Source: a virus (lineage: Duplodnaviria; Heunggongvirae; Uroviricota; Caudoviricetes). Taken from it: a DNA stretch of 64,000 bases. The notes beneath the pieces are model-generated. The model did no database searches. It saw nothing but the letters and a program-made list of their open reading frames with translations, and had not been told where the DNA came from. The stretch lies in IMG/VR virus record IMGVR_UViG_3300029267_003506. One strand, given 5' to 3'. Every line of letters begins with the position of its first letter. Positions within the stretch are counted from its first letter, which is position 1. The translations under genes were made by a program, and so were the position numbers. Of the stretch, positions 23,671 to 63,652 are shown one piece after another.

Positions 23671-23683
23671 TATAACCGGTCTC
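23671..23683 (-). promoter_or_regulatory. conserved phage motif GAGACCGGTTATA(GATG)
   Basis: About 30 nt upstream of the AAA+ gene start (23639). One of 8 copies. Confidence 0.5.
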
Positions 23684-23708
23684 ATTCTCCATTTGCCGCC
23701 CAAAAATC

Positions 23709-24362
23709 TTATTTTTTTCTCTTTTTTGAAAACCTGTCCATGCCGTAGCCTTTTTCCTCGCCAGCATCATTTTTCAATGTCACGATAGCACCCTCTCTTG
23801 CCACCGGAAGATACGACTCTCCCACGGTAAGTTCTCCCGGCTTTCCGTTCGCGTCGATGCAGTACAAAACAGGAAAATCCACTACCGCACCGTCTACTAC
23901 CGCAAGTGAGAATCCGGCAACCGACCTAAATTCCTCTGGATTCCCGTCGATAGAGACGTTGAAATCCTCATCTACGCGACTCACCTTACGCCATTGCCCA
24001 TTCTCTTCGTCGCAGACAACAATCCCCGGTCGCAGATTCGTGGCGTCAAGCAGTTCAATGCAATCACCGCCAAAATATCCGTATCCGGCAACCTCCAAAA
24101 ACTGTCCATCTACGCCCGTTATGGACAACACCTCTCCAGCGTCAAAGTTGCCATCCTCGCACACCCAGACCCCATAGACGGTCATCACCCTCTCGAAACA
24201 CCGGTCACTGTATTTCATCTTCAAACGCTCGTCGTTATCATCTACAATCATGAACCTATCGTCTGTTTTCGCGTCTGTTTCCATCTCATCTTTTACCGCG
24301 TAGATACGACCTACTGTAAACTCGCCTTCGGTCGTAAGCGCGGTACATCGCATGAACTTCAT
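23709..24362 (-). CDS. hypothetical protein
   Basis: 217-aa ORF. Confidence 0.45.
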   Translation of the reverse strand: MKFMRCTALTTEGEFTVGRIYAVKDEMETDAKTDDRFMIVDDNDERLKMKYSDRCFERVMTVYGVWVCEDGNFDAGEVLSITGVDGQFLEVAGYGYFGGDCIELLDATNLRPGIVVCDEENGQWRKVSRVDEDFNVSIDGNPEEFRSVAGFSLAVVDGAVVDFPVLYCIDANGKPGELTVGESYLPVAREGAIVTLKNDAGEEKGYGMDRFSKKRKK

Positions 24363-24748
24363 TTCGGCTCCCCTGCTGCTTCAAACTGTTCCCAATCGCA
24401 ATCAACCGGAACACCCTGGTTATCGGTTACTCGCAAATACTCTTCATCGTCATCATAGTAAAAAGCGGCATCGTAGACCGCTCCCACAGTGAACCTTTCC
24501 GCGATGCCTTCGTTGTTGATGCAGCGCACTCGTCTATCTACCATATTTCTTTCAAAATGAGGGCAGCCAACGGGTCTCCTTTCGCCCGCAGAGTACGCGC
24601 GGCAATGCTCGCCCGATTCACTCTTCGCCCAATTCCGGCAGTCAGGACAATTAGACTCGAAACCACATCGCTCTGCCAGGTTCGTGGCTTCGCGCTTCTT
24701 ATGTCTCCGGCGGGCAATTTCTTTGAGTTTTCTTGCACCTGTGCTCAT
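24359..24748 (-). CDS. Zn-ribbon hypothetical protein
   Basis: CPDCRNW...CPHF... Cys cluster. Confidence 0.45.
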   Translation of the reverse strand: MSTGARKLKEIARRRHKKREATNLAERCGFESNCPDCRNWAKSESGEHCRAYSAGERRPVGCPHFERNMVDRRVRCINNEGIAERFTVGAVYDAAFYYDDDEEYLRVTDNQGVPVDCDWEQFEAAGEPK

Positions 24749-25314
24749 TCTTCCACCACCACGCGAAAACGGTCACGATAACACTCGATTTCCCTCCCGC
24801 GCTTATCCGAGACCACAAACATCTCCTCGTCAATCTCATTCTCGACCACGTAGGTAACGCCGCTGCTGAAGTTGTCCTCCATCCCCGTGTTGTCAAGACA
24901 CATGACAACTATATCCTCACCATTCTGGGGTACGGGCACAGGTTTCCTGCCAGATAGAACTGCCCCGTCTACTACCGCTTCATTGTTATCCGTTTCGTCG
25001 CTATCCTGCTCTGCCTCAATATCATGTTCCAGGTATTCCGACATACGCGCAAATGTTAGCGGACCATCGTAGTCGGGATCTTCGATGTTCTGATAACCTT
25101 TTTTTATCTTGCTGCGGAACAATTGCAGAGCCTTGTCTTGCGCTTCCTGGAACGTCTGCGTGACGTGCTTAATCTGTTGGTGGAGGGCAGTTCCAGTCCT
25201 TCCCCACTTACCACCAACTCGATATTCACCGTCAGTCACTTTGATGACATAGACGAGATATGTCTTGTTGCTGCTGCCTCCTCTGTAGTGGCATATCTTG
25301 TTAAGCGCCATCAT
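24745..25314 (-). CDS. WGR-domain protein
   Basis: N-terminal KTYLVYVIKVTDGEYRVGGKWGRTGTALHQQ matches the WGR motif (W-G-R). Acidic C-terminus. Confidence 0.5.
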   Translation of the reverse strand: MMALNKICHYRGGSSNKTYLVYVIKVTDGEYRVGGKWGRTGTALHQQIKHVTQTFQEAQDKALQLFRSKIKKGYQNIEDPDYDGPLTFARMSEYLEHDIEAEQDSDETDNNEAVVDGAVLSGRKPVPVPQNGEDIVVMCLDNTGMEDNFSSGVTYVVENEIDEEMFVVSDKRGREIECYRDRFRVVVEE

Positions 25315-25320
25315 GTACTC

Positions 25321-27183
25321 CTACGCCCTGAAACGACCTCTTGTGATGATGTCCGCAAACCGACGGAAGAAATCTTGTCCCATTTGTCGCTCATCTTTCA
25401 GGTAGACAAAATAATCCCTCCCGTAAAACTTCCTCGGTTCTATTGTGCGCACACCGAACCCATATACCTCGACTCCCGCTCTTCGACTGCGCTCACAAAC
25501 GTACTTGAGAAACTGACCCATTTCCTGCTCGTTGTTATGTCCTGCTTCGGGACAACCATCGCTCAAACTGAAAATGATCCTACGGCGCTCTCGGCACGTA
25601 GACAAGCGCGCGACAGCCATCTCAATTGCCTCACAGTCCACATTGTGCTTGAAGGCTGAAATGCGAACTATGCGTGTTTTGACGGCTTCCCATCTCTCGG
25701 TGAAGGTCTTATAAATACGCAACCTGAGAGGGTTTGTTCGATCATAGCCCGGAATTAGTAACTTTCTGGGAATTTCGCCGCCAAAGTATTTCGTGGTACT
25801 TCCGACAATCTCAAAGCGAACCCCCAGTTTGTTCAGGGTCTCCCCCAACGCCGCAACAAGCCGCTGCATGGCGTATCGTGAAGCAGACATCGAAGCGCTT
25901 TCGTCCACAATAATGACTACCGCTGTATCCAATTTCTCACCGTCTCGAACCTGGTAAAAGACCCGTTTGTCCAATCCGGCTGCCGCATCCACAAGCCGCC
26001 GCATGTCAAGTTTTCCGCGTCGCATGTATTGTTCCTTACGAGAGCGACTAAGTGTGCGGAGAGCCTGGTCCAGTGCTCGACTGATACCCATAATGCTGTT
26101 TGCCACTTCTTCGCGGACTGCGTTGAACTGAGCCACACTGGTGCTATCGGGCACCTCGTATGCGTCGTTTTCCCTAATACTGCGATAGCGACGATCTGCC
26201 TCGGGAACTTCGTCGATTTGCGCTTCAAGTTCGCGCCGCAGGAATTCTCCCAGGTCCTCGCCTTCTGCCTCCTTCTCAAGCGCACCAGCAACCTCTTCGT
26301 CTGTTCGATCATCCTTCGTGTTTTCGACCTGTCCACTTGTTTCGTTGTCTGTACTCTCGCCTTCCCTGGGGTCCGCTGTTGCTGTCTCCTTCCCTTGTTG
26401 TCCCTCTTGTTGTCCCTCTTGTTGTCCCTCTTGTTGTCCCTCTTGTTGTCCCTCTTGTTGTCCCTCTTGTTGTCCCTTTTGTTCCCCTTGTTCCCCTTGT
26501 CCTTGCTGCTCTTTCTTTATTGCCTTAATGATGTCGTAAATCTTTCTGGCGATCACCAGGCAATCCCCTGTGGATTCTGCTCCACGCACCTCTTGGTATG
26601 TCTCATAGGCAGCGCTGATGTACTCTGCCGCGAGCCCCTCAGCGCGCCATGCCAACCGCGCCCCCTTGCACATTATCTCCATGGCGCATGCGGCTTCCCA
26701 AAGTGGAATCTCAACGGTTTCCCCACGTTGCACTTGTCCTGCAATTTTCTTGTTGTGGTAGTCCCGGCTCCAGTTGAAAACCACCCGGCAGCCTTCGTAT
26801 TTTCTTGCACCCTTCGCTTCAATTCGGTAATCATCCAGAGAATTCAAAATTGTCTTCAGAGCCTTGTTCTCACGGATTTCCTCCCACTGAGACTCCGAGA
26901 GATGGCTGTGAGCAATGTGGAGTACCTCGTGATAGTAGTAAGCCCGTGCCAACATAAGATCCTGTAGACCGTTGAGTGGCGGCATGAAAATGGTGCGGGT
27001 TTTCACATTGGCACAAGGGGGATTGCCGGGAGCCACATGCTTGATGGTTACCCTACCGTCCCGGCACATGTGTGGGATGATTACTTTGAGGGCACGCTCG
27101 ACCTCCTGAACGGCTTTGAGTTGTTTTTGCCGCTCAACATAGCGAGCATTCTTCTTGCTGTGTTTCGTCGTTGTGGCGCTCAT
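25321..27183 (-). CDS. zincin-like (HEVLH) N-domain plus vWA domain protein with (QEGQQ)n linker
   Basis: HExxH (YYHEVLHIAHSH). vWA MIDAS VIIVDESASMSAS. Low-complexity QEGQQ repeats. Confidence 0.7.
   Translation of the reverse strand: MSATTTKHSKKNARYVERQKQLKAVQEVERALKVIIPHMCRDGRVTIKHVAPGNPPCANVKTRTIFMPPLNGLQDLMLARAYYYHEVLHIAHSHLSESQWEEIRENKALKTILNSLDDYRIEAKGARKYEGCRVVFNWSRDYHNKKIAGQVQRGETVEIPLWEAACAMEIMCKGARLAWRAEGLAAEYISAAYETYQEVRGAESTGDCLVIARKIYDIIKAIKKEQQGQGEQGEQKGQQEGQQEGQQEGQQEGQQEGQQEGQQGKETATADPREGESTDNETSGQVENTKDDRTDEEVAGALEKEAEGEDLGEFLRRELEAQIDEVPEADRRYRSIRENDAYEVPDSTSVAQFNAVREEVANSIMGISRALDQALRTLSRSRKEQYMRRGKLDMRRLVDAAAGLDKRVFYQVRDGEKLDTAVVIIVDESASMSASRYAMQRLVAALGETLNKLGVRFEIVGSTTKYFGGEIPRKLLIPGYDRTNPLRLRIYKTFTERWEAVKTRIVRISAFKHNVDCEAIEMAVARLSTCRERRRIIFSLSDGCPEAGHNNEQEMGQFLKYVCERSRRAGVEVYGFGVRTIEPRKFYGRDYFVYLKDERQMGQDFFRRFADIITRGRFRA
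26390..26480. repeat. 15-bp tandem repeat (CCCTCTTGTTGTCCC x about 6) encoding (QEGQQ)n
   Basis: Perfect tandem copies inside vWA-zincin gene 25321..27183. Confidence 0.8.
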
Positions 27184-27213
27184 ATTATCGCCCCGGCAAA
27201 GTCCTCTACTTCC

Positions 27214-27226
27214 TATAACCGGTCTC
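27214..27226 (-). promoter_or_regulatory. conserved phage motif GAGACCGGTTATA(GGAAG)
   Basis: 30 nt upstream of the vWA-zincin gene start (27183). Confidence 0.5.
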
Positions 27227-28057: not shown

Positions 28058-28059
28058 GC

Positions 28060-28874: not shown

Positions 28875-29426
28875 TCACACCACGCGAAATAGACCCTTCG
28901 GTCCCATACCCCACTTCCCAGGAAAAAACCTACGCAGGAGCGCCCACAAGGCAACTCGTTCCTTGCTCGGGACGCTGTTCATCCGGCGCTCAGAATCAAA
29001 ACGGCGTCCAGGTATGTCCCTCCACGCCTGAATGAACTCTTCCTTTTCACCGCGCCGAAAGGGAGTATCGACGAGAAGCCGGTCCCCGTCCTCCTCAATC
29101 GTAATCTCGTATTCTTGGCGGTCCCGAGCCTTAACGAAACGACGGCGCATGCGATTAGCCAGAGCAACGAGATTTTCGTCCAGTTTTTCCACCAGGTCAG
29201 CGTACTCAAGAACTTCCTGAGCCTTCCCTGCCATTGCTGCCTCAGCCGCGTGGTAGACATGCTCATTGGCAATCGTGCGGATATCCGGCTCCAAAAGTTC
29301 GAGCCCTCCCCGACATTCAGGTCCGATTCCTTGCGCGACGCTGTCAGCATCCAAAAGAAGCCGTCCGCAACACACACAGTGAACTTGGAGCATCTGGCAC
29401 GCCGGCGCTTTAACGTAGTCAGCCAT
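28875..29426 (-). CDS. Zn-ribbon hypothetical protein
   Basis: Start MADYVKAPACQ at 29426 with RBS AAAGGAGAC. VHCVCCGRLL. Confidence 0.5.
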   Translation of the reverse strand: MADYVKAPACQMLQVHCVCCGRLLLDADSVAQGIGPECRGGLELLEPDIRTIANEHVYHAAEAAMAGKAQEVLEYADLVEKLDENLVALANRMRRRFVKARDRQEYEITIEEDGDRLLVDTPFRRGEKEEFIQAWRDIPGRRFDSERRMNSVPSKERVALWALLRRFFPGKWGMGPKGLFRVV

Positions 29427-29456
29427 TTTCAGTCTCCTTTCTGAAGTGTCCACCTG

Positions 29457-29469
29457 TGTAACCGGTCCC
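29457..29469 (-). promoter_or_regulatory. conserved phage motif variant GGGACCGGTTACACAGG
   Basis: 30 nt upstream of the start at 29426. Confidence 0.45.
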
Positions 29470-32842: not shown

Positions 32843-32852
32843 CATTATACCA
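32843..32852 (-). promoter_or_regulatory. extended -10 element TGGTATAATG
   Basis: About 30 nt upstream of the start of the membrane/SPFH operon (32810). Confidence 0.55.
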
Positions 32853-33583: not shown

Positions 33584-33971
33584 TCCACGCTTTGTTGCCG
33601 ATTTTGATTACGTCGCCGACAGACATAGACGTGTGATGTGCGCCTGACTTGCGAATGAAATCACGCGCCTCCCCGCCGGGTGACCACCTCTCACCTTGCA
33701 TCATGGCGAATATCTTGTTCAGGTTCGCCTCCTTGATGGAACCCAAAAGCACGTGTGTCTTTTTGAGCACCTTCGGGTCGGGCACTAATCCTTGCTTGCG
33801 CAGCCAATTCATTCCCATCATCCCGTCCCGCGCAAAACGGTCGTTCTGATACCAAATTTCGGTGCGTCCCGGAGCCAGTCCCTTCTCAAAAACCTCGAAA
33901 TCATTCAAGGTCCGAAACTGGGCAATTAGAAGCCTCGCCACAGCCAATATTTCTCTTGCGATACGTTCCAT
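33549..33971 (-). CDS. peptide-box family member (divergent N-terminal box MERIAREILAVARLL)
   Basis: N-terminal amphipathic box, then a unique C-terminal part. Confidence 0.5.
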   Translation of the reverse strand: MERIAREILAVARLLIAQFRTLNDFEVFEKGLAPGRTEIWYQNDRFARDGMMGMNWLRKQGLVPDPKVLKKTHVLLGSIKEANLNKIFAMMQGERWSPGGEARDFIRKSGAHHTSMSVGDVIKIGNKAWIVDSFGFEPLD

Positions 33972-33980: not shown

Positions 33981-36900
33981 CTATGCATATTTCCGCTTAA
34001 GATCAGCAACCATCTTCTCAACCTGCCTGATGCCCTCTTTGGTTTCAGGGATGCTCACCGTCTCTCCCCTATCAATGCGCTTGTGACGCTGGTAGATGCC
34101 ATTGACGCCCCACCCGGGTGTGCGCATGATAACCCACCGATAGAGCAACAACCGCACATCCTCTTCCTCGTTCAGGGGGATGCTATACATGTCCTTCGCG
34201 TGATATTTCATCCCCAGACGTCTTTCAAGGAGCGCGATGAAATCCTTTGGTCGTATCCTGTCTTCTTCCCCGGACTGCTCGCCAAATATCTTCTCCAGGC
34301 GACGAGCCGGCAGTACCACCTTCGGGTCGGCAGCATCCTTTGTCTCGTCCAGCGTCACAAACTTCGACTTGAAGATGTTAGTCTTCCTGCCGCCCACGAA
34401 AGCAACCGAATTGTAGAGCGCAGCATTGTCGTGGTGGGCGTACTTGTAGACGTCAAACGAAACGTAGTCATCTCCCTCCAGGTCTATCAGCACCTTTACC
34501 GTCCAGCCGTCTCTCGTCGCATGTGCCCTCTTGATGCCTGCCTTTTTGACTGGCGCGAATTTCTCAACCCATGCGCTGAATCTAGGAAGTGCGGATTTCA
34601 TAGTCCCCACGAAATCTTCCATCTCATCCTTTTGTTTCTTTTCCCTTTCTTCCTTTTCTTCCTTGGATTTCTCGTAGCGCTTTTCTAGTTCCTCACGCCG
34701 GCGTTGCTCTCTGACATCCTGGAGATTGATGATGTTCGGAGCCGTCGCCAAAATCGCCTGGGCAACCCTCTCCTCTACAGTCATCTCGGAAGAAAGCCTC
34801 ATGAGACCAGTTGTGCGCTCTCCGGTCTCCCTTGCGCGCTGTCTCACTTGTCGCATTGTAGGACCGCGCTTGACCCAATCCACGAGTTTCTTAAGGAGTG
34901 TTTCGTCGCCGCCTCGCTGCTTGATTGACCAGAAATCATGCTCGTTCCAGCGCTGGTCTCTCCCATCTACCAGCAAGTAGTTCGCCATGAAATCACGGGA
35001 ACCCACCCCAACACGCCGGGCACTATCCGGGAGTCCCATCTGCATGCCAGCCTTCCCGTGTCTCTCTCCCAAGTACTTCAACCCCAGTTCATGGAGTTTC
35101 TCTTTCAAAACCAGTGACCGTTCTTCCATTGTCTCATTGCGCTTCTGAGGCTCGACCCGGAAAACATTGACATAGGGCTCCTTGGTAAAAACATACGTGT
35201 CTTTCTCTCCCCGGTTGCCAATCACGGTCACAACGAGCGCGTCGTCCCGCACCTCAGCATACGGAATTTCTTGGACACCAATCTCGGCAAGGGCTTCATC
35301 TAACGGCTTCCCAAGTGGCTTTCTGGAAACCGCTTTGGGTCTCTTCGCGCGGTGTGTTTTGCCAGGAAAGATGGCAGCGTGAGACCATTTTGACCCGTTC
35401 CCGTATTCACGCACGACTTTGGCAAAATCCTTATGCGTCGGAACGTCCAAAACGGCAGCAGCAACCCTCTCGGCGATGCTGCTTTGGTCCAGAAAGCCAA
35501 TCTCTTCCTGGTCGTCGATTCCCGCCTCGCACGCAACAGTATCAGCAAGAAGACTCAACTCCGTCGCAATAACCTGCATATCCATAAGATCCTCCTCACT
35601 CGCCACCTTGAGCCCGTTAACTTTTCTGAACAAATATACCAGACGCTCAGGCATCGGTTTGTTCGTGATGTAATGCGCAAATGCCTCAGCGTAATCTTCC
35701 CGCGTATTGTTTTTCCCGTATTCCGTCGTGCTCTCCAGTTCAACAAGTGTCGCGCCGATTGATTTCCTCGCCGCATCCTTAAGACGCCCGAAAGGCTTGT
35801 GGACGTATTTTTTCATGAATTCATAGTCTTCCCTCGGTCGACCACGCATCCTGCTGGGAAGAATCTCCGGGTCTTGCTCGCCGGCTAATACCTCAGCCAC
35901 AGGCGGAATCCACTTGGCATCCCAGTAAGAACCGCCAAATGATCCCTCTTCGACTAGGTAGCCGATGTACTTCCTGCGAGCCGTCTTGATGTTGCCGCCT
36001 GAAAAACCGTGGGCGCTCCTCACTATCAAATCGTACACGTCTAGTAGCGCGTGCTTCGCCTGCCCCCTTCTAAGCGCAGCCAGAAATCTCTTGTATCCGA
36101 ACTCTGTCCAATTCGGATACTCAAACCCTAGCGCGTCTTTCTCGAACGGAACAGCCTTCTTGAACAACGCATAAACCATGTCCACCTGCTGCTTACTCAC
36201 TCTCGTCGCCCGGTTCTCAAAGTCCCCCTCCCACATCGCCCGCTGCGTCGAGCCCATCTTCTTGTACCAATGTCTGTGCCCCAGTTCATGTGCAAACAAC
36301 GTAGGATTTATGCTGTCCGCATTCACCACCACGATGTCCCTCGACTGGTCATAGTAGGCACCCGCCGTCATGCTCTTGTACTTCTTCGCCTGGTCGTTGT
36401 AAACGCTGAACCCGTCAAGCTTGCTAGAGACGACAATTATTGGACCATACAATACATTGCCGAAGCCGAGTTTCTTCATCTTGGCAATGACAGGCTTTAA
36501 CTCAGAAAGAGCCCTAGCCATGTGGTCATCATTTAGACCAGCATTGACAATCGTGAATGGTCCGTACTCGAACTTCTCTTTTATCTTACCGTAACCAGCG
36601 GCACCCTCTCCCTTGCCTGTCCCAAAGACGTAGCCGTGCTTCTCCAAGAGCGCCCGGAGCGTATCGGCACCTTGTTCGGCTCGCTGCAATAGGCTCGGGC
36701 GCTCAGACGATTCGAGACTCACCATGCTTGGGTCGTAGCCTTCCTTGAGAAGATAATCGAGTTTTTTGACTACCTCGCGTGTGTTATCGTCCTGCAGCAC
36801 GGCGTGGGCTAACGTCGATTTCTCGTTCGGTCCATAGAGACCATTGACCATCATGCCAAGTGAAACGCCATGGTCGCGTTTGAAATCAGTCATCGCGTTC

Positions 36901-37037
36901 TTGAGGTCGGACAAAGAACCACTCTTGGCTGCGTCGTACAAGATGGTCTGAAGATAATCGTTGACGGTGGGCTTGTCTGCCGCCTCTTCAGCAGAATGTT
37001 TAACGAAGGCTTCGGCAGTCGTGGATACGCACCTCAT
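33981..37037 (-). CDS. giant ankyrin-repeat plus zincin (HELGH) metallopeptidase protein; polyvalent-protein-like
   Basis: N-terminal ANK-like repeats (TLAHAVLQDD...VVKKLDYLLKEGYDP). HExxH at LFAHELGHRHWY. 1018 aa. Confidence 0.65.
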   Translation of the reverse strand: MRCVSTTAEAFVKHSAEEAADKPTVNDYLQTILYDAAKSGSLSDLKNAMTDFKRDHGVSLGMMVNGLYGPNEKSTLAHAVLQDDNTREVVKKLDYLLKEGYDPSMVSLESSERPSLLQRAEQGADTLRALLEKHGYVFGTGKGEGAAGYGKIKEKFEYGPFTIVNAGLNDDHMARALSELKPVIAKMKKLGFGNVLYGPIIVVSSKLDGFSVYNDQAKKYKSMTAGAYYDQSRDIVVVNADSINPTLFAHELGHRHWYKKMGSTQRAMWEGDFENRATRVSKQQVDMVYALFKKAVPFEKDALGFEYPNWTEFGYKRFLAALRRGQAKHALLDVYDLIVRSAHGFSGGNIKTARRKYIGYLVEEGSFGGSYWDAKWIPPVAEVLAGEQDPEILPSRMRGRPREDYEFMKKYVHKPFGRLKDAARKSIGATLVELESTTEYGKNNTREDYAEAFAHYITNKPMPERLVYLFRKVNGLKVASEEDLMDMQVIATELSLLADTVACEAGIDDQEEIGFLDQSSIAERVAAAVLDVPTHKDFAKVVREYGNGSKWSHAAIFPGKTHRAKRPKAVSRKPLGKPLDEALAEIGVQEIPYAEVRDDALVVTVIGNRGEKDTYVFTKEPYVNVFRVEPQKRNETMEERSLVLKEKLHELGLKYLGERHGKAGMQMGLPDSARRVGVGSRDFMANYLLVDGRDQRWNEHDFWSIKQRGGDETLLKKLVDWVKRGPTMRQVRQRARETGERTTGLMRLSSEMTVEERVAQAILATAPNIINLQDVREQRRREELEKRYEKSKEEKEEREKKQKDEMEDFVGTMKSALPRFSAWVEKFAPVKKAGIKRAHATRDGWTVKVLIDLEGDDYVSFDVYKYAHHDNAALYNSVAFVGGRKTNIFKSKFVTLDETKDAADPKVVLPARRLEKIFGEQSGEEDRIRPKDFIALLERRLGMKYHAKDMYSIPLNEEEDVRLLLYRWVIMRTPGWGVNGIYQRHKRIDRGETVSIPETKEGIRQVEKMVADLKRKYA

Positions 37038-38122: not shown

Positions 38123-38163
38123 CTCATTTCCTCCAAGGGCTTACGTTCACTCACCCGTACCAG

Positions 38164-38180
38164 AATATCAAGAAAATATG
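38164..38180 (+). promoter_or_regulatory. AATATCAAGAAAATATG motif
   Basis: Divergent intergenic region, 43 nt upstream of the ATG at 38223. Confidence 0.4.
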
Positions 38181-38222
38181 ACTTTTCAGGGACGTTCTAC
38201 GCTCGACCCTGATTAGAGGAAA

Positions 38223-38573
38223 ATGGAAAGGAGACCGTCCATGGGTGGACAAGCCGCAAGAAGACCATGTAAGCGCGTCGGACAGCAACTATACACGCAC
38301 CGACCATACGAGACGCAAGTCGTGCCAGACTATCTACTTGCGAACGCTAAGGAGCTGACTGGCTCGCGCATAGACGGTTACACCTGCGTGCGCTACGACG
38401 TAGACACGAAGGACGTGGCATTCCAGTTCTCGCCGGACTTCGATACCGCCGACGAGCCAACCGTCAGATACCACGACGGCTCCGTTGTGGGTCACTCCGC
38501 AGAGGGGGGACCCACAAATCTAGCACCACAAATGGATGTGGCTTACGGACGACTATCCCGGCTTCGACGTTGA
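38223..38573 (+). CDS. hypothetical protein
   Basis: 116-aa ORF with RBS AAAGGAGA. First gene of the plus-strand island. Confidence 0.5.
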   Translation: MERRPSMGGQAARRPCKRVGQQLYTHRPYETQVVPDYLLANAKELTGSRIDGYTCVRYDVDTKDVAFQFSPDFDTADEPTVRYHDGSVVGHSAEGGPTNLAPQMDVAYGRLSRLRR

Positions 38574-38673: not shown

Positions 38674-38686
38674 GAGACCGGTTATA
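38674..38686 (+). promoter_or_regulatory. conserved phage motif GAGACCGGTTATACAGG
   Basis: 19 nt upstream of the ATG at 38706. Confidence 0.5.
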
Positions 38687-38705
38687 CAGGCAGAAAGGAA
38701 AACCA

Positions 38706-39011
38706 ATGATCTGCCTACGATGTGGCTACTGTTGCAAACACTCATTCGTGGTCATCATCGACGACCCCGAACAGGGCTATGACCCCAACGACCCCGATTG
38801 CCAAGACAACATGGCGGTCGTCCTGGGAGATGGGACGCCCTGTAAACACCTGCGTGGGGAGAAACCAGGAGAATACTACTGTGCCATACATGACAAGCCC
38901 TGGTACAAACACACCCCTTGCGCCAAGCATCAGCAAATCGAACAGAAAAACTCGAACTGTCGCATGGGAGAGTATATTCTCTCCAGGGAAAATCAAGAAG
39001 GGAGGAAGTGA
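38706..39011 (+). CDS. Cys-rich hypothetical protein
   Basis: CLRCGYCCKH...CQD...CKH...C. Confidence 0.5.
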   Translation: MICLRCGYCCKHSFVVIIDDPEQGYDPNDPDCQDNMAVVLGDGTPCKHLRGEKPGEYYCAIHDKPWYKHTPCAKHQQIEQKNSNCRMGEYILSRENQEGRK

Positions 39012-39012: not shown

Positions 39013-40038
39013 ATGTACCGCAAATTGGCTCTTTTGCTCGTGCTCTTTGGCTATTCGGTGACTCACGCTGGGGACGCCTATGTCATCACGCCAACATTCG
39101 TCCACGCAGGTCCCAACGCCACCCCTGAAAACCGCATCTGCCGACTCCACAAAGGCACCAAGGTCGCCGTCAAAGGAAACGTCGGTGACCTCTCCATCAT
39201 CAAATACAGCGGCTACGACCTCACCCTCACTGGCTACCTGCCCAAAGAATCCATCACCGACCAGGCACCCGAAGAACGCACCCCACCCGAGGAAACGACG
39301 CCTACCCATTACGTCAAGGAAGCCACCAAACTCATGAAGAGCGGCAGGCTTTCCGGGACCTTGGCTGAAATCACTGGCTATGGTCCGGGGGTCACTATTC
39401 TGGCTGCGGAGGGCGGTTTTCGGCGTGTTGCTTACTGTAGCCCTGATTTTGAAGTGCGTGGCTGGGTGGAGGAAGGTGTGCTAGTGTCTCAAAGCGAATG
39501 GGAGGCGGTGAGGACCAAACTCGCTACCGCTGCCAAGAAAGAGGCTGCTGAGGCGTCTAAGTACGGAAAGGTGACGGACCTGCCTCTCAAGAAAGAAAAA
39601 GCGCTGACTATGCCTCAATTCGTGCGTATCAATGAACGCAGTGACCAAGAACATGTCCGCGTCCACTCTATGCCAGTCCCGACTCGCGCCGACTGGGAAA
39701 AGCGAAAAGAGAGCCTGAAAACAATCAAGAACCGTCTTCTCTGGCGTCGGGTTACTGACACTTTTTTCGTCATAGGCACTTTCCATCATCCTCTAAGCAA
39801 AAACAAACCTGTCGTCATCAACGGTATCAGCCTGCGTAACTACATCGGCGTCAAGTTGGGTTGCAGTAAAGTAAAAAAGGCTAAAAAACTCGCAAAGCGA
39901 GTAGTTAGCGGCTACTCCGGTGACCAAAGATCTCTGAAACTCAAAGTGGGAGACAAGGTTAAAGCCAGTTTCATAATCTACAAAACGTCCTCCAACGGCG
40001 TCCCTTCAGCCGTTTATTTCGACGTTTGCCACAAATAA
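39013..40038 (+). CDS. secreted hypothetical protein (signal peptide)
   Basis: Start MYRKLALLLVLFGYSVTHAGDA at 39013 with RBS AAGGGAGGAAG. The ORF track's longer frame from 38722 overlaps the previous gene. Confidence 0.55.
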   Translation: MYRKLALLLVLFGYSVTHAGDAYVITPTFVHAGPNATPENRICRLHKGTKVAVKGNVGDLSIIKYSGYDLTLTGYLPKESITDQAPEERTPPEETTPTHYVKEATKLMKSGRLSGTLAEITGYGPGVTILAAEGGFRRVAYCSPDFEVRGWVEEGVLVSQSEWEAVRTKLATAAKKEAAEASKYGKVTDLPLKKEKALTMPQFVRINERSDQEHVRVHSMPVPTRADWEKRKESLKTIKNRLLWRRVTDTFFVIGTFHHPLSKNKPVVINGISLRNYIGVKLGCSKVKKAKKLAKRVVSGYSGDQRSLKLKVGDKVKASFIIYKTSSNGVPSAVYFDVCHK

Positions 40039-40067: not shown

Positions 40068-40080
40068 GGCACCGGTTATA
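40068..40080 (+). promoter_or_regulatory. conserved phage motif GGCACCGGTTATACAGG
   Basis: 31 nt upstream of the ATG at 40112. Confidence 0.5.
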
Positions 40081-40111
40081 CAGGTAGTCCAAGGATAGAA
40101 AGGAAAAAGAC

Positions 40112-40351
40112 ATGACTACCAAAGCCCAGGAAGAGCGCGACCTTGTGGTCTCGTACATGTGCTGCACTGGCGAGAACTTTGGCAAACTCACCTCGCAACA
40201 GCACACCGAGGTTTACTTGCTCGGTGACGGCTTCGGGACCATCGACTTCTCCTTCGCGAACGAGCAGTGCTTTGATTGGAGCCATGTGCGAGATAGTTCG
40301 CCGGCAGCCTTCGCGCGCATGGCTGCTCACATCCGCCAATTGACCATCTGA
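40112..40351 (+). CDS. hypothetical protein
   Basis: 79-aa ORF preceded by the GGCACCGGTTATACAGG motif and RBS AAAGGAAAAAG. Confidence 0.45.
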   Translation: MTTKAQEERDLVVSYMCCTGENFGKLTSQQHTEVYLLGDGFGTIDFSFANEQCFDWSHVRDSSPAAFARMAAHIRQLTI

Positions 40352-40497
40352 GCCGTCTCCCTCCCTCACGCCGGGGGCTTCCCTCGCGGAGCCCCCGGTG
40401 CCCTCCTTCACCAAAATTCCAAACATTCCTGATTTTCGCCCAACCAAAAAGAGACACTGTTGGTATAATGCAGGGAAAATCACCCAAGGAGCAAAAA

Positions 40498-44697: not shown

Positions 44698-44707
44698 GAT
44701 TATACCA
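44698..44707 (-). promoter_or_regulatory. extended -10 element TGGTATAATC
   Basis: Upstream of small gene 44466..44651. Confidence 0.45.
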
Positions 44708-44990: not shown

Positions 44991-45003
44991 GAGACCGGTT
45001 ATA
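44991..45003 (+). promoter_or_regulatory. conserved phage motif GAGACCGGTTATAAGG
   Basis: 22 nt upstream of the ATG at 45026. Opens the second plus-strand island. Confidence 0.5.
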
Positions 45004-45025
45004 AGGAAAGTAAGGAGGAAACCCG

Positions 45026-45193
45026 ATGAAAGCCGTGCTGATTGACGTTCGCAACAAACAAATCCGGGATGTGCATTGCGACGGTACGCTCGAAAACATC
45101 TACTCCCTCACAGGCTGCAGGCTCATCCAACCGCTGGACAGAAAGGAAATGAAGTTTGGGAGTGGTGTAGCCAAGAAACTGGTCAATGCTTAG
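45026..45193 (+). CDS. small hypothetical protein
   Basis: 55-aa ORF, too short for the ORF track. RBS AAGGAGGAA. Preceded by GAGACCGGTTATAAGG. Confidence 0.35.
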   Translation: MKAVLIDVRNKQIRDVHCDGTLENIYSLTGCRLIQPLDRKEMKFGSGVAKKLVNA

Positions 45194-45206
45194 AAAGGGT
45201 AAAACC

Positions 45207-45683
45207 ATGGGATATGAAACGCACATTGTTATAGGTTTCCTTGGAGATCCTGTACCAGAACTGGCAAAAGATTTGACTAACCCATATGAAGATGGGTCTG
45301 GGTATCCATATAAAAAGGATAAAGCCGGAAACCCAATCAAGACGGGGCGTATGCAACGATACTTGATGCCTGCTGTGCATCTTGACCTTAGCAAAATCGA
45401 CTATAGCAACCTCGACTTGTTGCATGATAAGTACCTTAAGGTCACCGAAGAAAATCAAAATGAGTTTGTGTATTTTTATCACAGTGACAGGTGTACCGAG
45501 TTTTCTGAAGACAACTATGGCGATCCACTTGTCTTGGTTCCTTTCAAGGATGTCTTAGAGGCGGTGCGCACTGACGTGCAGAACAGCGATTATCGCCGCT
45601 TTCGGTGGTTGCTGGGACTGATGGAAGCCATGGCACTAACCGATAACTCAAAACACCTGGTATGCGTCTTCTATGGAACGTGA
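45207..45683 (+). CDS. hypothetical protein
   Basis: Start MGYETH with RBS AAGGG. Confidence 0.45.
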   Translation: MGYETHIVIGFLGDPVPELAKDLTNPYEDGSGYPYKKDKAGNPIKTGRMQRYLMPAVHLDLSKIDYSNLDLLHDKYLKVTEENQNEFVYFYHSDRCTEFSEDNYGDPLVLVPFKDVLEAVRTDVQNSDYRRFRWLLGLMEAMALTDNSKHLVCVFYGT

Positions 45684-45918
45684 TAACATTACACAAGAGG
45701 CTTTTCTCCACTCCGAAACGCAGGGCTTTCTTGCCCGGTTTTCGCCTCGCCCTATTCTGGAGAGCGCTCTGATTCTTGGCACGGACCCTAAAACCGGAGA
45801 AGCCACCGACACAACTCTCAACGCAAACGACATCGAGGTTCAGTTCCTAAAATTCGACACTGCGCCCGAGCCACCGCCAGCCATTTTCCTGGTTTTGGAG
45901 GATGACCAAGATGCCTGA
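45673..45918 (+). CDS. hypothetical protein
   Basis: 81-aa ORF. Confidence 0.4.
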   Translation: MERDNITQEAFLHSETQGFLARFSPRPILESALILGTDPKTGEATDTTLNANDIEVQFLKFDTAPEPPPAIFLVLEDDQDA

Positions 45919-46252
45919 CACGAAAACAGCCCCGGAAACCGTACCCAAATGCCACGGTAACTACGACAGCCGTTTTTCCTGCGAGGACTGCGGATTCCAG
46001 CAAAGTTGCCGCAAAAGCCGCGCGTTTGTGCAGCACATACAATCCATTGCACAATGCTACGGCGAATACGAACCGGAAAACCAAAATTGCGAACAATGCT
46101 TACTTGTGGAGCACTGTCAATCCGCCACAGACGGCTGTCCCCGGGAACACTGCGGAATAGAGACGGGAACGCTTGCCGGTCTGAAATCCGCAATTGAGGC
46201 GTCCACCGCAGAAACACCGTTCTTCCTGGAACCGCCCAAAGGCGTATCCTGA
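45902..46252 (+). CDS. Cys-rich hypothetical protein
   Basis: CHGNYDSRFSCEDCGFQQSC...CEQC...C. Confidence 0.45.
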   Translation: MTKMPDTKTAPETVPKCHGNYDSRFSCEDCGFQQSCRKSRAFVQHIQSIAQCYGEYEPENQNCEQCLLVEHCQSATDGCPREHCGIETGTLAGLKSAIEASTAETPFFLEPPKGVS

Positions 46253-46283
46253 CAATTTGAAGCCTTTTAGAAAGGAAAGAACC

Positions 46284-46631
46284 ATGGAACTCGTCATCAC
46301 GGCTGTCCCCACAAACGAGAACCGCATACCAGCCATCAAAGCGCTCCGCGAAGTCACTAATCTGGGGCTCAAGGATTCAAAACTCATCATTGACTCGGTC
46401 GCAGCCGGTGAAACACGGCAAATCTCCCTCAACAAGGAAAAAGCCACCCGAGCGACAACAACACTCCACAACGCCGGCTTCACCTTCTCCACCTACGACC
46501 CAAGTGACGACATTATCCAACACATCAAGGCAGCCATCCAATTGGCAACTCAGCGAGAAATGCCTTCCGTGCTGCCGCATCTCACCGTGGCTTTTGCAAA
46601 AGCGCTTGAACTGAAAGAACAAATCACATGA
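46284..46631 (+). CDS. ribosomal protein L7/L12 C-terminal-domain homolog (stand-alone CTD)
   Basis: IPAIKALREVTNLGLKDSKLIIDSVAAGE...LNKEKATRATTTLHNAGFTF aligns with the bL12 CTD ([26 protein letters not shown]...). No N-terminal dimerisation or L10-binding domain. Confidence 0.6.
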   Translation: MELVITAVPTNENRIPAIKALREVTNLGLKDSKLIIDSVAAGETRQISLNKEKATRATTTLHNAGFTFSTYDPSDDIIQHIKAAIQLATQREMPSVLPHLTVAFAKALELKEQIT

Positions 46632-46840
46632 AATATCTCATTTGGAGCATCGAGCACAATGCCTGGTGGGCTCCCAACTCGCGGGGATACTCAACCGAAC
46701 TCAGCGGAGCCGGTATCTACGAACGGAACGAGGCGAGTAAAATCATCCGAGGCGCAAACAGGTGCGGCGAAACCAACGAATGTATGATTCCGGTCGCCGC
46801 GATGCTCTCTGGGCTCCACGCAGAAACAGAAACAGAGTAG
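46628..46840 (+). CDS. hypothetical protein
   Basis: 70-aa ORF. Confidence 0.4.
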   Translation: MKYLIWSIEHNAWWAPNSRGYSTELSGAGIYERNEASKIIRGANRCGETNECMIPVAAMLSGLHAETETE

Positions 46841-56001: not shown

Positions 56002-56011
56002 CATTATACCA
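56002..56011 (-). promoter_or_regulatory. extended -10 element TGGTATAATG
   Basis: Contains the ORF-track ATG (56004). Likely the promoter for gene 55501..55965. Confidence 0.5.
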
Positions 56012-56074: not shown

Positions 56075-56087
56075 GGAACCGGTTATA
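56075..56087 (+). promoter_or_regulatory. conserved phage motif GGAACCGGTTATACATG
   Basis: 57 nt upstream of the ATG at 56145. Confidence 0.45.
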
Positions 56088-56144
56088 CATGTCGAAAGGA
56101 GCCCAGGTCCGTAAAACGCCACCTCAGAACAAGGAGAAACCCAA

Positions 56145-56288
56145 ATGAAGAAGATGCAATGCTCAACCGAAGGATGCGAAGAGGTCGAACAAGTAAACGA
56201 CAAGTGCCAATCGCTCAGGTGTTGGAAATGCACCGCCGGGCTCTACCCGACCGAAACAAAGGACGAACCCGAGCAGCAGTCAGAATGA
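56145..56288 (+). CDS. small Cys-rich hypothetical protein
   Basis: 47 aa (MKKMQCSTEGCEEV...CQSLRCWKC). RBS AAGGAGAAAC. Preceded by GGAACCGGTTATACATG. Confidence 0.35.
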   Translation: MKKMQCSTEGCEEVEQVNDKCQSLRCWKCTAGLYPTETKDEPEQQSE

Positions 56289-61748: not shown

Positions 61749-61753
61749 AAGAA

Positions 61754-61960: not shown

Positions 61961-62048
61961 CTACCAAAAGTGCAACAGGCTGCTGCATTTTTCTAATTCC
62001 TTTCCATAGCCCACTTTATGCTTTGTCAATTGTGCCGTCTGTAGCCAA

Positions 62049-62279
62049 TTAGTAGCCGTTCTTGCAAGGTGTAGCCTTTTCGGGAGGCGTACTGTTGCAC
62101 CCACAAGAACACGGCTCGCTCGGATAAAAACACCAACTTTTGTGATGGCTCTCCTCATGCTCGCGTTCGGTTCTGCAGCAACACGGTTCGCTTGGATAGA
62201 AATACCAATTCTCGTGGTGGTTCATCTGACCGGTATTTTGAAGCCCAGCGGTTCTCTCACGCCCACCGTCTCTTTTCAA
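62049..62279 (-). CDS. small Cys-rich protein with internal tandem duplication
   Basis: HHENWYFYPSEPCCCRTERE / HHKSWCFYPSEPCSCGCNST. Confidence 0.35.
   Translation of the reverse strand: MKRDGGRERTAGLQNTGQMNHHENWYFYPSEPCCCRTEREHEESHHKSWCFYPSEPCSCGCNSTPPEKATPCKNGY
62100..62235. repeat. about 63-bp tandem duplication inside a small Cys-rich gene
   Basis: CACGGCTCGCTCGGATAAAAACACCAACTTTTGTGATGG // CACGGTTCGCTTGGATAGAAATACCAATTCTCGTGGTGG. Confidence 0.55.
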
Positions 62280-62541
62280 GCCAAGCCAGCATCTCCCTTT
62301 CTCAACAAACGTGACGCCCTCTAGTATATCAAAATGCCCATCTCGTCTGAATCGCCCATCCCGCTTGCCCCCTTGATTGCCAAGATTGCCTCTCGCTTTC
62401 CCTCGGCTGCCCCCTCCTCAAGCGACGCCATGATTCCCTTCATTGTTGCCATCGTCAAAGCATACGTCGGCACAACAAACTTCGCGCCATCTGACAACCG
62501 AGAAACAACCGCCTCCCCCGTTACCACCTTCGCCCGAATCC

Positions 62542-62727
62542 TCACTCGTCACCGTCCTTCCAACCGCATTCCTCACACATTAACACCACCTCAACACACG
62601 AAGAGCAAGGAGCATGCCCAAGATGACAAGAGCAATTTTCAGACGCAGGATACCTCAACACTCCCTCTCCGCATCCAGGACACACGCCGCCCTCTTCTGG
62701 CTCCGCTGTCATCTCGCGCTCCTTCAA
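62542..62727 (-). CDS. Zn-ribbon hypothetical protein
   Basis: CPGCGEG...CSCH...CSSC...CEECG. Confidence 0.35.
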   Translation of the reverse strand: MKEREMTAEPEEGGVCPGCGEGVLRYPASENCSCHLGHAPCSSCVEVVLMCEECGWKDGDE

Positions 62728-62734
62728 AACGCCG

Positions 62735-62944
62735 TCAAACCTTCTGACTCCTCACATAATCATCCCATTCCTGACCGAGTGCCCTTCTCGCCTTCAACAT
62801 GTCGCAATTCTCGTCGTGTTCCCCTTCGTCAAGGTCCCTATCGCAAAACGCACAACACCGGTACATCCGATTGTCATACTCGCTCTCGTATTCAATCCCC
62901 CTTCGCAACCAGAAATGCGAATTCCTTGAAATCCGGCATCGCAA
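62735..62944 (-). CDS. Cys-rich hypothetical protein
   Basis: 69-aa ORF with CCAFCD...C. Confidence 0.35.
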   Translation of the reverse strand: MRCRISRNSHFWLRRGIEYESEYDNRMYRCCAFCDRDLDEGEHDENCDMLKARRALGQEWDDYVRSQKV

Positions 62945-62953
62945 ACCTCCTGA

Positions 62954-63133
62954 CTACAAAGCAAACCACTGCGCCTTTGTGGGAATGTCAGCATCCTCTA
63001 AACCCACGGCACACTCGCGGCACAGCGGCACATCCTTCGGCGTGTACCAATAAGCCGTCTCCCTCTCACACTTGCAACAATGCTCATACGGCTCAACACT
63101 TATCTCCATTGGCTCGTGCTCAACAGTAACCAC
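62954..63133 (-). CDS. small Cys-rich protein (start uncertain, GTG)
   Basis: The ORF-track ATG is embedded in a TGGTATAATGG box. Likely GTG start (VVTVEHEPMEISVEPYEHCCKCE...) with RBS AAGGAGA. Confidence 0.3.
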   Translation of the reverse strand: MVTVEHEPMEISVEPYEHCCKCERETAYWYTPKDVPLCRECAVGLEDADIPTKAQWFAL

Positions 63134-63172
63134 CGCTCTCGTCTCCTTCAAAAACCACCGTTGCTCGATTCC

Positions 63173-63182
63173 CATTATACCA
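63173..63182 (-). promoter_or_regulatory. extended -10 element TGGTATAATG
   Basis: Embedded in an ORF-track ORF. Likely the promoter for gene 62954..63133. Confidence 0.45.
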
Positions 63183-63519
63183 TTTCGGTTGTCTTTTTCG
63201 CTCGGTTTTTTCGTTTTTCTCGCTTCTTTCGTTGCCCTGCTTCCAGTAGTTGTTCCAGGTAGTACGGACACTCAGGTGACAATTCTACCTCCCGCACCCA
63301 CTTCCGTCTCACTTTTCGTAGCACCCACCAAACCAAAAGAGTCGCCCTGTTCCATTGCCTTTTCCACCGCCGCCGCAACCATCCCGGGCTCAATAGGCAT
63401 TCTACCTTCTCGCTCCAGAGATATTGATTCATTTGCCGGCAATACACCGAAACAAGATCATGACTCCGAACCATTGCAAACCCAGTGCAACGCTCGCAAA
63501 AATACGCGCGTACCTTCAT
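63175..63519 (-). CDS. Cys-rich protein, CPFxLEHL family (ECPYYLEQLL)
   Basis: 114 aa. N-terminal CERC pair plus the C-terminal family motif and a basic tail. Confidence 0.4.
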   Translation of the reverse strand: MKVRAYFCERCTGFAMVRSHDLVSVYCRQMNQYLWSEKVECLLSPGWLRRRWKRQWNRATLLVWWVLRKVRRKWVREVELSPECPYYLEQLLEAGQRKKREKRKNRAKKTTEMV

Positions 63520-63639
63520 CTAACTTATCTCCTTATAACGCTTTATAGGCAACAGCATAATCCATCTGACTTCTGGTCCTCGTCCAAAGTATACCGGAAA
63601 TCAGACATTTTTTTCGAATTTCAACAGCAAATCCGATTT

Positions 63640-63652
63640 GAGCCCGGTTATA
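63640..63652 (+). promoter_or_regulatory. conserved phage motif GAGCCCGGTTATAAAG
   Basis: 35 nt upstream of the ATG at 63688. Confidence 0.45.

Follow-up and report, generated by a model that had tools for sequence, protein, structure and literature searches.

The late promoters of phage T4 (TATAAATA; gp55/gp33), which are without a -35 block, and those of SPO1 (gp28, gp33-34) are read by replacement sigmas that steer the host core RNA polymerase (RNAP). The T7, T3 and SP6 promoters are contiguous elements of ~17-19 bp: the 5' edge is AT-rich (ATTT), the middle is specific, and TATA precedes a purine-rich start. In the Thermus phage P23-45, extended -10 promoters serve the middle and late genes. 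The closest known case to the motif studied here appears to be that of phiEco32, whose gp36, a divergent phage sigma ('distant homolog'), directs transcription from middle/late promoters with AATGTA centred at -11.5, and a contact in the -35 region contributes (PMC12276001).

We analyzed 64,000 nucleotides of DNA (the window) from a Caudoviricetes phage, IMG/VR record IMGVR_UViG_3300029267_003506, which belong to a genome of ~116.7 kb. As in phiEco32, a phage-specific motif other than TATAAT lies in multiple copies just before phage genes, and sigma70-type promoters of the host seem to stand alongside it in the same genome. Unlike in phiEco32, no gp36 homologue or sigma2-containing protein was found in the ~99.5 of 116.7 kb covered (the covered part), and the conserved block, known here from its sequence, is longer (TTGAGACCGGTTATA) and is joined by an UP-like tract. 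As in T4 and SPO1, short phage-specific motifs stand ahead of gene clusters, but the sequences are unrelated to those of T4 and SPO1, and neither Pfam nor PHROGs gave homologues of gp55, gp33, gp28 or gp34. We call this motif class 2 and the host-type promoters class 1.

The earlier note had described class 2 as eight copies of a 17-bp motif upstream of start codons on both strands. All eight sites exist, and the 9-mer CCGGTTAYA recovers exactly these: 23671(-), 27214(-), 29457(-), 38678(+), 40072(+), 44995(+), 56079(+) and 63644(+). The exact 17-mer, however, is present at only one of them, and conservation continues for ~50 nt further upstream. With up to three mismatches allowed, the 17-mer gave 7 matches as compared to 0.10 expected from shuffles, far from the expectation for this composition. 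CGGTTATA occurs 8 times (0.45 expected); a copy of it at 22747(+), within a gene and with flanks that have no similarity, is probably due to chance. In a weight-matrix scan the eight sites scored 21.7-34 bits and everything else at most 11.8. Intergenic DNA makes up 9.4% of the window and holds seven of the eight cores; the eighth, 40072, falls under one of two rival ORF calls and is ambiguous. The placement reported before was confirmed, since at 8/8 sites an ORF with an SD sequence and ATG begins 19-57 nt past the core, with the core pointing towards it. Two further copies with the same layout, GCGGTTATA and TCGGTTATA, were found outside the window in the same genome. Thus, the ~117-kb genome carries ten copies, each just before a gene start and all co-oriented with the downstream gene. 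The core had also been called palindromic. ACCGGT is present at six of eight sites, with AACCGGTT at 56079 only and CCCGGT at 63644.

On the minus strand, core GAGACCGGTTATAGATG (23667..23683; 27.2 bits), whose upstream conservation reaches ~23729, heads the gene of a MoxR-like AAA_5 ATPase (22404-23639, minus strand; ATG 31 nt past the core). Core GAGACCGGTTATAGGAA (27210..27226, minus strand; 21.7 bits) has the weakest upstream match of the set and heads a CobT-like vWA gene (25321-27183, minus strand; ATG 30 nt past the core). Core GGGACCGGTTACACAGG (29453..29469, minus strand; 29.6 bits) heads a DUF6011 gene (28875-29426, minus strand) and the cluster of the 3D-domain gene, again with the ATG 30 nt past the core.

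On the plus strand, the sole exact 17-mer, GAGACCGGTTATACAGG (38674..38690; 34.1 bits), heads the island genes 38706-39011 and 39013-40038 (plus strand) with the ATG 19 nt past the core. Core GGCACCGGTTATACAGG (40068..40084, plus strand; 29.8 bits) is followed by a plus-strand ORF of 79 aa, with an SD sequence and ATG at 40112, which conflicts with a minus-strand ORF (40076-40414) in the public gene calls; a putative class-1 copy of TGGTATAATG lies at 40461, downstream of both the core and this ORF start. Core GAGACCGGTTATAAGGA (44991..45007, plus strand; 29.4 bits) stands before the plus-strand island 45026-46840 (one gene of which is ribosomal L7/L12-like) and is divergent from a predicted class-1 promoter at 44698-44707 (minus strand). 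Core GGAACCGGTTATACATG (56075..56091, plus strand; 27.8 bits) heads a purine-rich ORF for a Cys-rich product of 47 aa (56145-56288, plus strand) and stands back to back, ~70 nt apart, with another predicted class-1 promoter at 56002-56011 (minus strand). Core GAGCCCGGTTATAAAGA (63640..63656, plus strand; 30.1 bits) heads a DUF8280 gene, with an SD sequence and ATG at 63688 (plus strand), that runs past the window end, and then a 122-aa gene. The sites therefore head the islands and the AAA+ and vWA genes, as had been noticed, but the ORFs at 40072 and 56079 are small.

Conservation exceeds the 17 bp first described: the unit spans ~60 bp, ends in CCGGTTATA and is made up of four parts. The first, ~26-45 nt before the core at an UP-element-like position, is rich in A/T and partly palindromic (AAAAATCCGAGATTTT-like). 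A weak -35-like pentamer, CGGCA, begins 19 nt before the core and reads CGGCA, CTGAA, GGTCA, CGTCA, CCGCG, CGGCA, CCGAC and CAGCA at the eight window sites. TTGAGA abuts the core on its upstream side, and the last part is an almost invariant C-CGGTTATA, which would act as the -10 region. The contiguous block of the window sites is tTTGaGACCGGTTATA, with conservation continuing to about -55; the stretch from the core to the SD sequence shows no sequence conservation. The -35-like block of the window sites is weak, and the strongest conservation is in a contiguous 15-19 bp ending in TATA, which taken alone also resembles a promoter of a single-subunit RNAP.

The misfit to sigma70 spacing pointed out previously holds. 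TAnnnT is absent from CCGGTTATAca in every register, and the best fit, TATACA, ends in A at all sites. TTGAGA is only 4 nt from TTATAC, there is no conserved sequence at 17 nt past TTGAGA, no -35 element stands at 17 bp, and in a scan with the canonical -35/-10 consensus the matches were not enriched. For sigma54, TGGCAC was found at 40068 only and TTGC at -12 in none of the sites, which have ATAC or similar; judged by the missing -12 TTGC, a sigma54 promoter is excluded. The ECF pattern (GGAAC-N16-17-CGTC) is not present either, the window sites carrying CGGCA and CGGTTATA in place of GGAAC and CGTC. The block spacing of 19-22 nt, start to start, is nevertheless similar to that of ECF promoters, and one relative (L016, see below) has CCGTTCTG.

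Class 1 is different. The extended -10 sequence TGGTATAATG has 7 exact copies, and 11 with at most one mismatch, as compared to 1.4 expected. These copies are gene-oriented and occupy other intergenic regions than class 2, which suggests that host-type promoters coexist with class 2 in this genome. Class 1 precedes the packaging/structural genes and most other clusters and has no -35 element. This is like the -35-independent promoters of P23-45, although no gp39- or gp76-like proteins of that phage were identified here. An archaeal BRE/TATA reading, raised by a match of TerL to Pfam MJ0330_N, was dropped because the SD sequences are strong and the extended -10 class TGGTATAATG is present.

The module of 3D, CobT, WGR, AAA_5 and DUF6744 genes keeps its synteny in relatives of this phage. 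In seven relatives, seven different motifs stand before the CobT-like and AAA_5 (MoxR-like) genes: CACGGCAA-N11-GCGGTTAAGTC in 4 copies (L013), CGGGGTGG-N12-CCGTTCTGTA in 11 (L016), CCCCTTT-N14-CGGTTAWGTA in 2 (L177), the TGCAATATG type in 2 (L178), TTCCGTAT-N14-GCAATGTA in 6 (L099), GYCAGAWWT-N12-CGATAGT (L100) and, in the most distant relatives (L101/L102), the canonical TTGCAA-N17-TGTATAGT. Several of them consist of two conserved blocks, 19-22 nt apart from start to start, around a non-conserved spacer of fixed length. This geometry suggests recognition of the sigma70-family type. The -10 blocks of the relatives include AATGTA, TATGTA, TAAGTA and TCTGTA, and that of the window is TATACA; these blocks resemble the phiEco32 AATGTA. 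Three relatives with a GC content of 42-52% have CGGTTA in common. The group is widespread, its phage-G-like major capsid protein being 69-94% identical over 80 metagenome contigs of 30-64% GC from many habitats. Differing hosts, each with its own alternative sigmas, could likewise account for the divergence of the motifs among relatives. Repeats near the capsid-protein genes of the relatives were considered as promoters and rejected, for they are coding tandem repeats or tRNA arms. GenBank phages gave no match to 12 kb of this DNA by megablast or to the tandem-HTH protein (see below) by tblastn.

These data make it very probable that class 2 is a promoter. The proposal of a phage-specific, non-sigma70 promoter is supported by the intergenic position, the strict co-orientation, the closeness to an SD sequence and ATG, the lack of a sigma70 -10 hexamer and -35 element, the contrast with class 1 and the differing motifs of the relatives. 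In addition, the islands on the plus strand are divergent and have no co-directional upstream gene, and the sites that head them fit initiation rather than RNA processing. We infer from the sequences that a phage sigma-like specificity factor would direct the host multisubunit RNAP core to these sites, and that factor and motif would evolve together. Transcription would start a few bases past the core, near cAGG, and a leader of ~10-50 nt would hold the SD sequence. Class 2 would serve the small genes of the plus-strand islands as well as the CobT-like/MoxR-like module, and the host-type extended -10 TGGTATAATG would head most remaining gene clusters. We give about even chances to this picture of a lineage-specific promoter read by the host core with a phage-encoded, co-evolving factor. 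Of the possibilities listed in the earlier note, the best fit is a phage sigma or specificity factor, given the two-block motifs of the relatives and the UP-like tract of the window sites. Like the promoters of known phage sigmas, class 2 is multi-copy, co-oriented, adjacent to genes and unlike the host consensus, and the relatives have different motifs at syntenic promoters; no sigma2-containing gene was detected in the covered part.

We searched for the recognizing factor with Pfam, PHROGs, a PDB sequence search, jackhmmer and phmmer. In the covered part, no sigma region 2, ECF sigma, gp36-like or T4 gp55-like protein was detected. With E. coli RpoE, B. subtilis SigW and phiEco32 gp36 as queries, neither jackhmmer nor phmmer gave a match below E = 0.02 in 12,219 ORFs, drawn from the window and all loci; very divergent sigmas could escape such searches. 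The sole sigma-related protein, encoded at 9807-10277 (minus strand; the ORF 9807-10418, minus strand, has a weak Sigma70_r4 match), contains tandem sigma4-like and LuxR-like HTH domains and no sigma2 domain. A phage whose promoter motif is unrelated has almost the same first recognition helix, which makes this protein an unconvincing specificity factor; since it lacks a sigma2 domain and is also conserved in phages whose promoter motifs are unrelated, it was rejected in that role. Class 2 is an ordinary type of phage feature whose trans-acting partner was not found in the covered part. It is possible, if rather doubtful, that phages with this phage-G-like capsid have a factor family missed by current profiles, or a cryptic polymerase, and that this factor evolves so fast that close relatives carry unrelated two-block promoters before the same genes.

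A phage RNAP would be an improbable reader of class 2. It could be a T7-like single-subunit enzyme or a divergent two-barrel one (as in N4, crAss-like phages and P23-45), unrecognizable or encoded past the ~99.5 kb covered. Like the T7, T3 and SP6 promoters, the window sites have a contiguous 15-19 bp block, with ATTT at its 5' edge, that ends in TATA before a purine-rich start, and specificity diverges between related phages. Such an ATTT edge and TATA block are much like those of the SP6, T7 and K11 promoters. Class 2 would also drive early-looking islands of small ORFs, with the structural genes on the extended -10, and such a split between early-like and structural promoters resembles P23-45. 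However, no conserved G follows TATA, the A/T tracts are conserved to about -55, the relatives have two blocks around a non-conserved spacer, and the most distant of them carry canonical sigma70 promoters in the corresponding places. The UP-like tract suggests contact with the C-terminal domain of the host alpha subunit. The absence of an RNAP gene from the window had been reported previously, and all searches agree with it: in the covered part there was no RNA_pol match in Pfam, including the T7 type, or in PHROGs and no catalytic motif, and no single-subunit RNAP or sigma gene was found there outside the window. DxDGD/NADFDGD is absent from every ORF of at least 150 aa in the window and flanks, and the catalytic motif is absent from 2.8 Mb of the relatives' loci. 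The string D-x-D-x-D occurs only in two large proteins of unknown function, neither resembling an RNAP active site, and a 1018-aa protein contains HExxH instead of the active-site motif. Because the relatives are two-block, the tract is UP-like and no RNAP was found in ~85% of the genome, the T7-like reading is disfavored.

Recognition by an alternative sigma of the host, with no phage factor and with relatives that differ since their hosts differ, seems unlikely as well, though it would agree with the two-block geometry and with the lack of a detectable phage sigma in the covered part. The range of GC content (30-64%) and habitats in the group implies diverse hosts, and the sharing of CGGTTA by the three relatives of 42-52% GC is in keeping with this explanation. 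On the other hand, we know of no host sigma that the motif fits, none of the consensus sequences of sigma54, sigma28/SigD, ECF (GGAAC/CGTC), SigB (GTTT/GGGTAT) and the sporulation sigmas being suitable. A lytic phage would not usually place ~10 operons under a stress or specialized sigma, and the only lead to a host is one 3-kb contig binned in a Gemmatimonadota MAG.

We regard it as quite improbable that the motif is mainly the site of a phage activator or repressor over a weak host sigmaA promoter with TATACA as the -10, and that it represents no new core-promoter specificity. The binder could be the tandem-HTH protein (9807-10277, minus strand), which is conserved, or another HTH protein, and the phage also encodes a KOW (NusG-like) protein. 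ACCGGT is a 6-bp palindrome, the A/T tract is partly palindromic (AAATC-N3-GATTT), and TATACA matches TATAAT at 4/6 positions with a G at -14. However, symmetry is confined to the 6 bp of ACCGGT between asymmetric flanks, and the motif takes the same orientation to the downstream gene in every copy, unlike a dimeric operator. The key T at -7 is absent from all sites, the -10 blocks CCGTTCTGTA and GCAATGTA of the relatives are wholly unlike sigmaA, and the first recognition helix of the HTH protein is kept between phages with unrelated motifs.

A non-transcriptional role is very unlikely, whether as an RNA processing or translation signal in the 5' leader, as a repeat used in replication or packaging, or as what is left of a small mobile element. 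Three sites do lie within co-directional clusters, where read-through transcripts would include the motif, and elsewhere in the genome the AAAAAATCCGAGA element and GGTCGGTTAT recur in an intergenic region rich in repeats. However, the sites stand at the head of divergent gene islands, the conserved sequence precedes the likely leader and does not extend into it, the copies lose similarity within ~60 bp and lack both terminal inverted repeats and target duplications, and the window contains no Rfam family at threshold. A search of the window for tRNA genes gave none.

If the preferred reading, host core with a phage specificity factor, is true, this would be the first transcription map of an uncultured ~117-kb phage of a widespread lineage. 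It would have two promoter classes, an extended -10 before the packaging genes and most clusters and a private class before the small-gene islands and the CobT-like/MoxR-like module. Because the motif differs at syntenic positions and neither a sigma nor an RNAP is recognizable, the lineage suits a hunt for a new promoter-specificity factor by covariation. Comparison of motif variants with genes across the dozens of related genomes could reveal the factor, and the motifs could serve as orthogonal promoter/factor pairs.

The motif with core CCGGTTATA, here called class 2, was proposed as a promoter in the earlier note from eight copies, and all eight are confirmed. The 9-mer CCGGTTAYA matches the window at precisely these sites (cores at 23671, 27214 and 29457 on the minus strand and at 38678, 40072, 44995, 56079 and 63644 on the plus strand), and a weight matrix built from them scores them at 21.7-34 bits, with the next-best window position at 11.8 and no grey zone. 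The count is above that expected from composition, which had been set as a test: the 17-mer GAGACCGGTTATACAGG with up to three mismatches gave 7 matches in the window versus 0.10 expected from dinucleotide-preserving shuffles. CGGTTATA occurs 8 times versus 0.45 expected; its copy at 22747(+) is intragenic, lacks flanking similarity and is probably due to chance. Intergenic DNA makes up about 9.4% of the window and holds seven of the eight cores, the eighth (40072) lying beneath one of two rival ORF calls. Orientation with the downstream gene holds at all eight sites: on its own strand, each precedes a Shine-Dalgarno sequence and then an ATG ORF that starts 19-57 nt past the core; the ORFs after 40072 (79 aa) and 56079 (47 aa) are small.

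The conserved unit is longer than the 17-mer, which is exact at one site only: alignment shows that about 60 bp are conserved. Some 26-45 nt upstream of the core is an A/T-rich, partly palindromic tract resembling AAAAATCCGAGATTTT; a pentamer of weak conservation (CGGCA, CGTCA, CAGCA and similar) starts 19 nt upstream, and TTGAGA stands immediately 5' of the core, which is followed by cAGG; the stretch from core to Shine-Dalgarno sequence is not conserved. The palindrome reads ACCGGT at six of the eight sites; AACCGGTT is found at 56079 only, and CCCGGT at 63644. No TAnnnT -10 hexamer occurs at class-2 sites in any register, and TTGAGA is in the wrong place for a -35 element. Canonical sigma70 and sigma54 promoters are excluded by sequence.

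The window sits in a genome of about 116.7 kb (ENA ERZ27256778 k141_1556585 with overlapping JGI, ENA and Logan contigs); an outward contig walk added about 20 kb of sequence on its left and 16 kb on its right. Two extra class-2 copies, GCGGTTATA and TCGGTTATA, were found on the right, with the same upstream layout followed by Shine-Dalgarno sequence and ATG; the genes that they precede are again small and lie on the strand that is plus in the window. There are no copies in the 20 kb on the left. A degenerate ninth unit with a decayed core (38163-38219(+), matrix score below 10) lies upstream of the gene at 38241(+); its GAATATCAAGAAAATATGACTTTTCAGGGACGTTCTACGCTCGACCCTGATTAGAGG parallels the 38.62-kb site, and its GAAAATAYCAAGAAA is also conserved in all four promoters of the related phage L013. 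On the right-hand contig L179, a repeat-rich divergent intergenic region of 336 nt (5397-5733, some 10.4 kb beyond the window's right end) contains a unit of about 45 nt (GAAAAAATCCGAGAATCCTTTTTTTGAGTGCGTTTGGAACGAAAAGG) three times and AAAATAGGTCGGTTAT twice, reusing the UP-like element of class-2 promoters; this region could be an origin or a regulatory hub.

Reading of all intergenic regions revealed a second sequence, the extended -10 element TGGTATAATG (class 1), with 7 exact copies and 11 with at most one mismatch versus 1.4 expected. Eight sites are intergenic, gene-oriented and without a -35 element (minus strand, 14660-14669, 17016-17025, 20861-20870, 32843-32852, 44698-44707, 56002-56011 and 63173-63182; plus strand, 40461-40470). 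They lie upstream of the terminase and portal (packaging/structural) clusters, of several genes for ATPases and of further clusters on the minus strand. Because TGGTATAATG is enriched and canonical -35/-10 matches are not, host sigmaA-type promoters needing no -35 appear to coexist with class 2. The two classes are divergent at three places (44.7/45.0, 56.0/56.08 and 63.2/63.6 kb). Locus L202, a packaging region from a related phage, likewise has the class-1 sequence, and the packaging region of the L099 phage carries TGGTATAAT; thus class 1 is shared between phages, whereas class 2 is private.

Syntenic loci were reached through CobT-like homologues (40-51% identity), and more distant relatives through a profile scan of IMG/VR. 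The syntenic gene order is 3D domain, CobT, WGR, AAA_5 and DUF6744. CCGGTTATA is absent from every relative examined, and each has its own multi-copy motif before the same genes: CACGGCAA-N11-GCGGTTAAGTC in L013 (4 copies, inside a conserved unit of about 70 nt), CGGGGTGG-N12-CCGTTCTGTA in L016 (11 copies in 22 kb), CCCCTTT-N14-CGGTTAWGTA in L177 (2 copies), GGATTTTTGSGGACTC..TGCAATATG in L178 (2 copies), TTCCGTAT-N14-GCAATGTA in L099 (6 copies), GYCAGAWWT-N12-CGATAGT in L100 (5-6 copies), and canonical TTGCAA-N17-TGTATAGT in L101 and L102 (7-10 copies). Promoter position is therefore conserved and promoter sequence private to each phage. The promoters form a continuum, canonical sigma70 in the distant relatives and private motifs in the close ones. 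Several relatives have a motif that plainly consists of two blocks with a spacer of fixed length but non-conserved sequence, 19-22 nt from start to start. This geometry is that of sigma70-family recognition.

The gene content is very dark. Recognisable products are the large terminase subunit, portal, major capsid protein, a DUF2201 vWA metallopeptidase, a MoxR-like AAA_5 ATPase, a CobT-like vWA protein, a ParB-like protein, an exonuclease, HhH-GPD, SPFH, 3D-domain and L7/L12-like proteins, NrdD and NrdG. The capsid protein shares 69% identity with its counterpart in a 485-kb uncultured phage, 48% with the one in Tunturiibacter phage Tunturi_5 and 38% with that of Bacillus phage G. The protein (286 aa; encoded at 18573-19433 of left contig L005, some 8.5 kb before the window begins) shows 69-94% identity over 80 JGI metagenome contigs; capsid-bearing fetched loci of at least 8 kb span 30%-64% GC, contigs up to 338 kb and samples from many metagenome projects. 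This conservation is unusually strong given the genome divergence. The protein with a ribosomal L7/L12 C-terminal domain (46284-46631(+), Pfam E = 6e-8) belongs to the operon of the putative class-2 promoter at 44991. On left contig L207 (12413-18152, some 12-18 kb before the window begins), a 562-aa ORF of homing endonuclease-like appearance divides nrdD (anaerobic ribonucleotide reductase) into pieces of 955 aa and 198 aa; nrdG and a gene for a caspase-like C14 peptidase come next. The largest window ORF (33981-37037(-), 1018 aa) has an HExxH zincin motif (FAHELGHRHWY) and no Pfam or PDB sequence match, and three successive genes at L179 123-2515 encode almost wholly MORN-like repeats (GSWxVENWKDGKxHGK). 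An in-frame tandem repeat (1713-1928) in gene 717-3077(-) differs in copy number between samples, with products of 786 aa (JGI contig) and 760 aa (ENA contig). Two independent assemblies break within the CobT-like gene 25321-27183(-), at about 26471-26786 (JGI contig end 26786, Logan contig start about 26471), which suggests strain-level variation or a repeat there.

An N-terminal helix, M(D/N)(D/E/K)RR(V/I)AxEL(V/I)R(L/V/I)AKxL, is common to at least 20 otherwise unrelated proteins, one of them rubrerythrin/ferritin-like. Their genes start on the minus strand at 33971, 37700, 38122, 42840, 52024, 52521, 52979, 58165, 59188, 59677, 60201, ~60561, ~60964, 61371 and 61666, with others at L008 318-680, 999-1289, 1302-1673 and 5794-6684 and L207 10836-11525 and 11535-11792. 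No Pfam or PHROG family matches the helix, which looks like a shared targeting/cargo tag (capsid-internal proteins?) or a propeptide.

Neither a sigma region 2, ECF sigma, gp55-, gp28-, gp34- or gp36-like protein nor a T7-type or DxDGD-type polymerase was found in the window, its flanks or 2.8 Mb of relatives' loci, bearing out the claim that the window lacks an RNAP gene. In the sole sigma-related protein (9807-10277(-)), profile alignment shows two HTH domains, the first sigma4-like and the second LuxR-like, and no sigma2 domain. Its conserved core gene adjoins a KOW (NusG-like) gene and packaging genes. The L099 phage, despite an unrelated promoter motif, has almost the same first recognition helix in this protein, which therefore probably does not set the specificity of class 2 and may have a conserved target.

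The class-2 motif is very probably a promoter. The two-block geometry of the relatives, the UP-like tract and the specificity continuum point to host multisubunit RNAP, which would be steered to class-2 sites by a fast-evolving phage-encoded specificity factor. The closest documented case is phiEco32, whose divergent sigma gp36 uses the element AATGTA centred at -11.5 (PMC12276001); it is resembled by the relatives' -10 blocks (AATGTA, TATGTA, TAAGTA, TCTGTA) and by TATACA in the window. Four alternatives follow in falling order of weight. The promoter reading was supported but its T7-like variant is disfavoured, as no T7-type polymerase was found in the window, its flanks or the relatives' loci and several relatives' motifs are two-block, and we regard a cryptic phage RNAP reading class 2 as unlikely. 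A host alternative sigma reading these sites is likewise unlikely. That class 2 is a binding site for a regulator, overlapping a weak sigmaA promoter, seems improbable. A non-transcriptional role is very improbable. Phage-specific promoter classes are already a known kind; the added interest lies in the missing trans-acting factor and in how rapidly specificity turns over from one relative to another.
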